This document shows, one piece after another, positions 60,336 through 60,461 of a stretch of DNA of 64,000 bases. Source of the stretch: a virus (taxonomy: Duplodnaviria; Heunggongvirae; Uroviricota; Caudoviricetes); IMG/VR virus record IMGVR_UViG_2850773344_000009; one strand, written 5' to 3'. Position 1 is the stretch's first letter; every line of letters starts with the position of its first letter. The translations under genes were made by a program, and so were the position numbers. The notes below the pieces were generated by a model. The model did no database searches. It saw nothing but the letters and a program-made list of their open reading frames with translations, and had not been told where the DNA came from.

Positions 60336-60461
60336 AGTCTTTCAGTCTGCGATGATGGGAAATCCCGGAGTGACTGAAAGACGTTTAAGTTATGAATGAT
60401 CGCTTTTTTTGCAAAATTGCTGTGCAGAAATACTAACCTTCGGGCAGGCGATCATTCATAA
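60336..60461 (+). promoter_or_regulatory. Structured leader/regulatory region upstream of holin: perfect inverted repeats of 11 bp (60337..60347 / 60372..60382) and 14 bp (60390..60403 / 60448..60461)
   Basis: gtctttcagtc...gactgaaagac and ttatgaatgatcgc...gcgatcattcataa read directly. Confidence 0.45.

Follow-up and report, generated by a model that had tools for sequence, protein, structure and literature searches.

A conserved three-hairpin RNA module downstream of prophage tRNA arrays, and an orphaned copy upstream of a holin gene

The window analysed here is a stretch of 64,000 nucleotides of tailed-virus DNA (Caudoviricetes; IMG/VR record IMGVR_UViG_2850773344_000009). Near its end, the + strand encodes a class II holin of the P21 S-type (60622-60837; Pfam PF04971, E = 4.8e-35), followed downstream by DUF1327, lysozyme and an Rz fragment. 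The non-coding stretch before the holin gene contains two perfect inverted repeats that had been described in a first-pass annotation, and both were recovered with the coordinates, sizes and spacings given there. The arms of the first repeat (IR1, 11 bp) lie at 60337-60347 (GTCTTTCAGTC) and 60372-60382 (GACTGAAAGAC) and are separated by 24 nt. The arms of the second (IR2, 14 bp) lie at 60390-60403 (TTATGAATGATCGC) and 60448-60461 (GCGATCATTCATAA) and are separated by 44 nt. The gap between IR1 and IR2 is 7 nt. A third perfect repeat of 9 bp (60460-60468 / 60506-60514), which abuts IR2, had been overlooked. The same annotation had placed a terminator hairpin 75 nt beyond IR2 and the holin start behind it, and this arrangement was confirmed. 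The intrinsic terminator (60537-60561, + strand; GCCCGC-UUUU-GCGGGU + U-run) consists of a hairpin at 60537-60552 and a T-run that extends to about 60561, 60 nt before the holin start codon at 60622.

Repeats of this kind had been judged not to be a product of chance. We generated 1000 dinucleotide-preserving shuffles of 60200-60700 and searched them for perfect repeats with loops of up to 60 nt. A repeat of at least 11 bp occurred in 7 of the 1000 shuffles and one of at least 14 bp in 1 of 1000. The combination of an 11-bp and a 14-bp repeat was found in none of them, in line with the earlier judgement. Three of the checks that had been proposed together with the repeats, namely RNA folding, comparison with lambdoid prophages and covariation analysis, spoke for a conserved structure. 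For the + strand RNA of 60331-60565, the predicted fold comprises three hairpins and the terminator, with an energy of -80.9 kcal/mol and z = -5.9 relative to shuffles; the - strand of the same segment folds less well (-61.3 kcal/mol). The repeats are conserved upstream of holin genes in related prophages, and their stems keep pairing (see below). As read from the folds and alignments, the repeats are the hairpins of a predicted three-hairpin RNA module (H1-H2-H3, 60337-60514), behind which lies an intrinsic terminator.

The module has a size of about 180-190 nt, and its elements follow each other in the modular order optional H1, H2, H3, terminator. Hairpin H1 (60337-60382, + strand; repeat search, folding and alignment A3 of 25 variants) corresponds to IR1. 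Its 11-bp outer stem is followed by a bulged U60348, then by the pairs G60349.U60371 and C60350-G60370, and then by an internal loop with the bulge G51 A52 U53 (window 60351-60353), G60354.A60369 and A60355.G60368, and next U60356.G60367. The inner stem is GGG/CCC, and the apical loop is variable. H1 is absent from some relatives. Hairpin H2 (60390-60461, + strand; repeat search, folding and RNAalifold) corresponds to IR2 and forms a three-way junction. It has an outer stem of 14-16 bp, an inner stem (60406-60413 / 60423-60430) capped by the apical loop AAAUUGCUG, which contains GCUG, and a small CC/GG hairpin at 60437-60443. Hairpin H3 (60462-60513, + strand; repeat search and alignment) is the best-conserved part. 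Its outer stem is GCACUCUG/UAGAGUGC, its interior contains UCCGA/UUGGA and AACU/GGUU, and its loop is GUGGGU. The G/U-rich 3' strand of H3, GGGUGGUUUGUUGG, was nearly invariant in alignment A2, the sequences of which had been picked by the H2 loop motif and not by H3.

For the analysis of covariation in H2-H3, 26 diverse sequences were aligned and a consensus fold was calculated with RNAalifold. In this fold, IR2 is the outer stem of the H2 three-way junction, and the third repeat is the outer stem of the long hairpin H3. Pairing was retained in 97.1% of the alignment cells and 10 pairs had changed on both sides, compared with 32-49% paired cells in slid controls, in which the partners were shifted by 1-3 columns. 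For H1 (alignment A3, 25 variants), 95.4% of the cells were paired and 4 pairs had changed on both sides, compared with 36-50% in the slid controls. The double-sided changes in the H2 outer stem were UA/AU, GC/UA and UA/CG. Five of the 8 pairs of the H3 outer stem were changed on both sides, and at least four versions of this stem (GCACUCUG, GCAUCUCG, GCACUCCG and GCACCUUG) were seen, each complemented by its partner strand. The inner stem of H2 showed a compensatory change from GC..GU to AU..AU in one lineage (L167), and another lineage (L176 and L191) carried a different hairpin on the same H2 base together with a normal H3. G.U pairs outnumbered A.C mismatches by about 10:1 (132:11 in H2-H3 and 61:6 in H1), which indicates that the + strand, i.e. 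the late-gene strand, is the strand selected as RNA. Shuffle statistics overstate the independence of the family sequences, which are closely related (effective sequence number in the model, 1.27), even though the stems occur in several versions. The H2 loop had been partly selected by the search pattern; in a second, H3-anchored scan, which was done independently, the H2 apical loop varied and was not strictly invariant. Loop invariance may in part be due to recent common descent and recombination. When the window type was compared with phage HK639, similarity ended shortly after H3, and the terminator was replaced by another that also pairs.

The internal loop of H1 has the sequence 5'-GC-GAU-GA-U GGG...CCC G-GA-GU-3'. 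It consists, in this order, of a C helix, a 3-nt bulge, tandem G.A/A.G pairs and a U.G pair (3n = G), after which regular pairing resumes. The G, A and A of the tandem G.A pairs were invariant, and the fourth base was a G in 24 of the 25 variants. Above this element H1 has only 4 bp and the variable loop. A kink-turn is defined by a C helix, a 3-nt bulge and tandem trans G.A/A.G pairs that open the NC helix (PMC4316175). Judging by its sequence, the H1 loop fits this definition and appears canonical. C helix, bulge and tandem G.A/A.G pairs are shared with Kt-7 and with the kink-turns of riboswitches and box C/D RNAs (PMC4316175, PMC4382518). Kink-turns of the 3n = G class are reported to fold in metal ions without L7Ae (PMC4382518). 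On this basis, the 3n = G identity predicts that the H1 kink-turn would likewise fold in metal ions without L7Ae. Weak, sub-threshold Rfam matches to C/D-box snoRNA models coincided exactly with the H1 internal loop. The kink-turn resemblance fits the finding that these models were the only weak Rfam matches on the segment. Compared with known kink-turns, the one in H1 is a prediction from sequence, and E. coli is not known to have an L7Ae-family protein.

The 235-nt segment that bears the repeats was present in 536 of 5426 complete E. coli genomes, usually in one copy per genome. Among the 40 matches listed for these genomes, none had an annotation under the match. In the phage collection, four uncharacterised coliphages matched at 98-100% identity and HK639 at 78%. 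The HK639 module sits between a Q-like gene and the holin gene and is bracketed by annotated terminators. Scans with exact motifs identified the module on more than 120 viral contigs and in prophages of Enterobacter, Citrobacter, Yokenella, Phytobacter and Shigella, and also in an Enterobacterales MAG. The remaining 27 genome matches lay outside the Enterobacteriaceae, with about 17 chance matches expected for an 18-mer. Covariance model R1 scored 134.6 bits over 60388-60519, the sole copy within the window. A search of 59000-61500 against Rfam 15 gave no match at E <= 1. At E <= 10, only 6 matches were obtained in 60300-60570, with 10-18 bits compared with gathering thresholds of 37-99 bits. 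No paper was found when the full-text literature was searched for six motifs conserved in the module. On the evidence of the alignments, the module is best filed as a new RNA family that has conserved predicted pairing on the late-gene strand and is absent from Rfam 15.

The setting of the module is illustrated by strain NRZ14408 (NZ_LT599825), where the antiterminator gene Q is followed by four tRNAs (annotated as Ile, Lys, Thr and Gly), a spacer, and the genes for the holin, a YdfR-family protein, lysozyme and a lysis protein. The 290-nt spacer is identical to window 60331-60621. More generally, the order in intact relatives is Q, pR'/tR', a sigma-70 promoter-like site, 2-5 tRNAs, H1-H3, a terminator and the holin gene. 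We ran ARAGORN on 129 family loci, 111 of which had enough upstream sequence, and found at least one tRNA within 800 nt upstream in 104 of these 111. In most of them, the distance from the end of the array to the H2 loop motif is about 76 nt when H1 is present and about 20 nt when it is absent, and the last tRNA is usually tRNA-Gly(UCC). The commonest array, present in 57 loci, consists of a tRNA with CAU anticodon followed by Lys, Thr and Gly; the second tRNA varies among arrays. Directly before the first tRNA, a consensus match TTGCA-N17-TAT(T/C)AT with a GC-rich discriminator was found in many lineages with unrelated spacers, and this putative tRNA promoter is often preceded by a terminator. 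NRZ14408 has a separate pR'-like site that overlaps the end of Q; a bidirectional terminator follows about 70 nt later, upstream of the tRNA promoter.

On the 3' side, consensus matching placed a canonical terminator 10-30 nt past H3 in 42 of 64 distinct downstream flanks. These terminators belong to at least three unrelated sequence families, which means at least two replacements of the sequence. Weakened terminators or IS insertions are present in many of the other flanks. In the relatives, the module thus occupies the position of a tRNA-operon trailer, between the last tRNA and the operon terminator and on the same strand. The genes upstream of the module encode Q proteins of at least five unrelated types, or are morons, and those downstream encode holins from six or more unrelated families. 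Around the module, the Q type, the holin type, the tRNA set and the terminator sequence are interchangeable. HK639 retains H1-H3 although its tRNA-Gly is no longer called by ARAGORN. In seven loci H2-H3 was found without tRNAs, for example behind a 69-aa ORF, and the link to tRNAs is therefore frequent, not obligatory. One such locus (L179) has the order Q, promoter-like site, 69-aa ORF, H2-H3, terminator, two further terminators, holin. In loci of this type, consensus scans place H2-H3 before the first strong terminator after the promoter-like site beside Q. Altogether, the comparison of loci supports well a self-contained cassette of terminator, promoter, tRNAs, H1-H3 and terminator in the Q-to-lysis interval, with H1-H3 as the predicted 3' trailer.

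The copy in the window deviates from this organization. In BLAST comparisons with complete E. coli genomes, the homology to intact prophages began at 60309, inside the annotated tRNA-Gly. What is left of this gene in the window is a tRNA-Gly(UCC) remnant on the + strand (60309-60330; BLAST homology to tRNA-Gly of NZ_LT599825), which consists of the last 22 nt and comprises the 3' strand of the T arm, the 3' acceptor strand and CCA. H1 starts 6 nt past the CCA end. ARAGORN found no tRNA or tmRNA in 58000-62000, and a scan of 59800-60900 for sigma-70-like promoters found none. A TTGCAA... sequence inside H2 was considered by eye as a promoter and rejected, since its spacing to any -10-like hexamer was wrong and the scan of 59800-60900 had found no promoter. 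The cognate Q gene had been reported missing, and indeed there is no Q gene nearby in the window. The sequence upstream of 60309 does not belong to a lambdoid late region. Positions 57483-60331 correspond to a different element, which comprises a Rha/ANT-like gene, DUF6971, a protein of 405 aa that matches no Pfam entry, and about 460 nt of conserved non-coding sequence. This upstream element is also present in strain LR-64-1, and its non-coding stretch there itself ends in a diverged tRNA-Gly-like 3' end. The joint between element and prophage falls within the shared 22 nt of tRNA-Gly. A similar joint is found in strain EPSSH018; the exact junction of the window was not found at >=80% coverage in the 5426 complete E. 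coli genomes. IS elements flank the window cassette. The module itself is intact and 100% identical to the modules of two free phages. The window copy has lost the tRNAs and the promoter and is orphaned. Most likely, it is a silent or read-through-only relic. We suggest that it be annotated as an orphaned copy located where recombination has created a junction within a tRNA-Gly gene, and not as a regulatory site for the missing Q.

On balance, we think it probable that the module is a structured trailer RNA of a self-contained prophage tRNA operon, released as a stable RNA that would act in trans on a host component. Here the structured trailer of a tRNA operon has good support, and the weak step is its action in trans. 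The operon would be transcribed in lysogens from its own promoter, and ordinary endonucleolytic tRNA 3' processing just past the CCA would free a trailer of about 200-230 nt, which the three long hairpins and the terminator stem would protect. The trailer RNA would then act on a constant host component, protein or RNA, with the H1 kink-turn, the GCUG-containing H2 apical loop and the invariant G/U-rich H3 strand as contact surfaces. The terminator would also insulate the holin gene from the tRNA promoter. Because Q, holin, tRNA set and terminator vary, and the kink-turn, the H2 junction and the H3 G/U strand are constant, a host partner is more likely than a phage gene. A structured leader RNA of the lysis cassette had been among the suggestions of the first-pass annotation. 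The structured RNA stands, with hairpins on the late-gene strand, as both the covariation and the preference for G.U over A.C indicate. The leader part has to be restated: the RNA appears to be primarily the 3' trailer of a tRNA operon with its own terminator, and only transcripts that read through this terminator would have it as a leader of the lysis genes.

Prophage tRNA arrays are commonly seen only as providing tRNAs for rare codons or, in more recent work, as a means of counter-defence. The presence of a conserved RNA of about 180 nt on tRNA arrays, in about 10% of complete E. coli genomes, suggests that the cassette delivers a second, non-tRNA product. If this RNA is stable and host-directed, it would be a widespread lysogenic-conversion factor and a candidate kink-turn RNA in an organism without L7Ae. 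If it is cis-acting, it would bear on the survival of late transcripts after excision of the embedded tRNAs. Going further, it is conceivable, if somewhat unlikely, that the module represents an undescribed class of phage-borne structured RNA, made constitutively together with tRNAs and modulating a conserved host factor via the kink-turn and the invariant loops. Such an effector might have as its partner an RNA-binding protein, a ribonuclease, a component of the machinery for translation or tRNA processing, or a defence nuclease that targets tRNAs. The RNA would in that case be a host-directed effector, neither a base-pairing sRNA nor a leader.

Several observations would also be compatible with a function in cis on the late mRNA. 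Q-modified polymerase would read through, excision of the tRNAs would leave the 5' end of the late mRNA a few bases before H1, and the hairpins would protect this new end. They would guard the mRNA for lysis and morphogenesis against RNase E decay that depends on the 5' end, or offer a defined processing site for RNase III or RNase E. The start of H1 at 6 nt past the CCA, the invariable location of the module between tRNAs and late genes in late-gene orientation, and the length and stability of the stems all agree with such a role. However, a hairpin of any sequence would suffice for it, yet the kink-turn, the H2 junction and loop and the G/U strand of H3 are conserved while the stems vary. 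Moreover, H1 as the 5'-most hairpin is dispensable in several lineages, and the retention of a terminator right after H3 points to a discrete RNA end. We therefore regard protection in cis as rather unlikely. Another possibility is that the module is a functionless passenger: degenerate DNA of tRNA or spacer origin that is carried along with the tRNA cassette, with the window copy as a recombination scar. The H1 core (CUGCGAUGAUGGG..CCCGG) does resemble a segment of the variable loop and T arm of tRNA-Gly (CUGAUGAUGCGGG..CCCGC), the family members are closely related, and the window copy is without a promoter. Nevertheless, several independent compensatory changes keep the three stems while the flanking spacer and terminator diverge beyond alignment, and the module has outlasted the replacement of tRNAs, Q, holin and terminator, which makes a passenger quite improbable.

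Since the multi-hairpin RNA is immediately followed by one to three terminators and by the lysis genes, the question of terminator control arises, either by put-like antitermination or by a read-through decision into the lysis genes of the riboswitch or T-box type. The early operon of HK639 uses a put-like RNA, H1 contains a kink-turn, as do T-box Stem I and several riboswitches, and H3 contains GGGUGG, the core of the T-box sequence. The match to HK639 had led us to consider a put antiterminator RNA. The annotated putL-like RNA of this phage (L123 4188-4313) bears no resemblance to the module in sequence or model, and a search of the HK639 early region with model R1 found nothing. The put RNAs of HK022 and HK639 suppress termination in cis without protein factors and depend on the zinc-binding domain of the RNA polymerase beta' subunit. 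They resemble the module as multi-hairpin nascent RNAs upstream of terminators in lambdoid phages, and both kinds occur in HK639, but put RNAs are promoter-proximal elements of the early (pL/pR) operons, whereas the module is located between Q and the holin gene, behind a tRNA array. A T-box leader was suggested by GGGUGG, the kink-turn and the adjacent tRNA-Gly. T-box leaders have a Stem I with a specifier loop and distal T-loops, and their T-box sequence forms an antiterminator that competes with the terminator. The module has no specifier stem and no alternative pairing with the terminator, and no Rfam match to a T-box or riboswitch was obtained even at E up to 10. The covarying closing stem of H3 does not overlap the terminator, and the terminators, which are not related to each other in sequence, lie at variable distances from H3, so that there is no conserved alternative pairing. 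Constitutive antitermination behind a tRNA promoter would also express the holin in lysogens. Since none of the membership features that could be tested was found, terminator control is very unlikely. Even less probable, in our opinion, is an element that acts as DNA, such as a Q-binding (qut) site, a late promoter or the operator of a regulator. The first-pass annotation had put forward a Q-utilisation or late-promoter element and regulator binding sites, as the position upstream of the lysis cassette and the perfect dyad symmetry might suggest. In intact relatives, however, the pR'-like promoter and the first terminator adjoin Q, about 500-700 bp upstream of the module and before the tRNA array, and 59800-60900 contained no promoter-like site. 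The module accompanies unrelated Q families (at least five types) and at least six holin families, which also opposes a Q site. The arms change jointly and keep their complementarity without any fixed sequence or half-site, G.U is tolerated on one strand only, and arms 24 and 44 bp apart are unlike operators. Finally, a 32-aa ORF at 60409-60507, listed among the open reading frames of the window, overlaps H2-H3. That it encodes a small protein is hardly credible, as it begins with TTG and is disrupted in relatives by premature stops at differing positions and by 1-nt indels that change the frame.

We also compared the module with small RNAs that are encoded at similar positions. PasA and PasC of EPEC are specified by prophage sRNA genes beside holin genes (PMC8550237; bioRxiv 10.64898/2026.05.13.724894). 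They share with the module the slot immediately upstream of a lambdoid holin-lysozyme operon and the intrinsic terminator at the end. Identity with a Pas sRNA was rejected, because the published PasA probe, sequence and strand differ from the module; PasA is unrelated in sequence, has a length of about 85 nt and lies on the strand opposite to its neighbours. Another prophage sRNA, IpeX of DLP12, is encoded in the same slot beside a holin gene and likewise ends in an intrinsic terminator. The region upstream of essD in DLP12 matches only the last 55 nt or so before the holin gene, and not H1-H3.

The trailer reading that we prefer has closer parallels among RNAs from tRNA operons. These comprise 3'ETS-leuZ (glyW-cysT-leuZ), RtT RNA (tyrT operon) and the species 1 and 2 RNAs of T4 (rnaC and rnaD). 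The first is an Hfq-dependent sponge of about 50 nt, and the T4 RNAs are stable, phage-encoded and of unknown function. All of these are non-tRNA segments that are co-transcribed with tRNAs, are freed by tRNA processing and end at or near the operon terminator, as we propose for the module. The module shows no similarity to any of these RNAs in sequence or model, and RtT, although present in Rfam, gave no match here. With about 180 nt, three covarying hairpins and a kink-turn, it also differs from 3'ETS-leuZ. By analogy, its function would most resemble that of tRNA-operon trailer RNAs and would also be similar to the lambda 6S and StxS by-products, with no shared sequence in either case.

StxS of Stx phages is a short pR'-tR' transcript that acts as a regulator (PMC7547250). 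Like lambda 6S and StxS, the module would be a non-coding RNA made in the lambdoid Q-to-lysis interval, with an intrinsic terminator that is overridden by Q-modified polymerase. The search of the phage collection gave no similarity to lambda. In contrast to 6S and StxS, a separate pair of pR'-like promoter and terminator commonly lies upstream, and the module is part of a second unit, which has a promoter-like site of its own. For example, a consensus scan of locus L001 placed the pR'-like site and its terminator upstream of the tRNAs, unlike the start-to-terminator layout of 6S and StxS. In the tRNA-less relatives of the L179 type, H2-H3 may be the 3' end of a pR'-tR'-type transcript.

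The three-hairpin module and its lysis cassette are joined on the upstream side to a different element. This element comprises Rha/ANT-like and DUF6971 genes, a 405-aa ORF for a large protein without a Pfam match and, 3' of this ORF, some 460 nt of non-coding DNA (window 59868-60331). The non-coding stretch has a counterpart in strain LR-64-1 (locus L201, 3234-3660), where an integrase is found near the same element. Comparison of the two stretches indicated about 90% conservation, with indels of 24, 7 and 24 nt, and both are terminated by a tRNA-Gly-like 3' end. The joint to the lysis cassette falls within this shared tRNA-like sequence of 22 nt (window 60309-60330), a possible site of attachment or recombination. 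The non-coding stretch also contains a tandem direct repeat (TGTAACCATAA / TGTAACCACAA, 12-nt spacing, window 60232-60254), which is kept in LR-64-1 and in strain EPSSH018.

In the prophage tRNA arrays that precede the module at other loci (L086, L030, L039, L017, L036 and others), the second position appears to be a variable slot. The tRNAs in this position include Lys(UUU), Arg(UCU) and Phe(AAA), several of them with abnormal anticodon loops; for the one in L086, the ARAGORN call was a tRNA of the suppressor type with a UUA anticodon. In phage HK639, terminators are the sole features annotated between Q and holin in the GenBank record. ARAGORN predicted an unannotated tRNA-Asn in this interval (L002, about 3770-4020), and a tRNA-Gly-like sequence that is no longer called by the program is located immediately 5' of hairpin H1.

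The core of H1 (window 60348-60367, CUGCGAUGAUGGG-loop-CCCGG) resembles a segment of the adjacent tRNA-Gly in the intact E. coli prophage L001 (5985-6010, CUGAUGAUGCGGG-UUCGAUU-CCCGC). The similar segment comprises the variable loop and the T arm, and this likeness suggests that H1 may therefore be derived from a tRNA duplication. In loci that lack H1, the joint is found between two CCAGTT repeats, the same repeats that flank H1 in HK639-type sequences.

Near-identical copies (26-27 nt) of the 3' half of hairpin H3 (GGGTGGTTTGTTGGATGTAGGTGCCTC) were detected in four unrelated viral contigs (L163, L178, L187 and L197). In all of them the copy sits within an apparent protein-coding gene, and these matches are probably due to chance.

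A 10-nt inverted repeat with 90% complementarity (window 60607-60616, TGCGGAGGTG; 60663-60672, CACCTCCTCA) is predicted to pair the Shine-Dalgarno region of the holin gene with codons 14-17 of its ORF. This repeat may form a translational control hairpin for this dual-start (Met1/Met4) holin of the S21 type.

The 5-kb block containing the module and the lysis genes is bracketed by putative IS ORFs, recognized by eye in the ORF translations: IS3-family transposase ORFs upstream (window 56315-57519) and IS2-like ORFs downstream (window 62772-64000). The left IS adjoins a terminase gene that is encoded on the other strand. The Rz gene is apparently truncated at its 5' end, its Pfam match beginning at profile position 26.

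Locus L092 has a 319-aa ORF 5' of the tRNAs, roughly 1 kb from the module on its upstream side. Judging from its sequence, this ORF appears to encode a Shiga toxin 2 A subunit; if this assignment is correct, the module is also present in at least one Stx-type phage.
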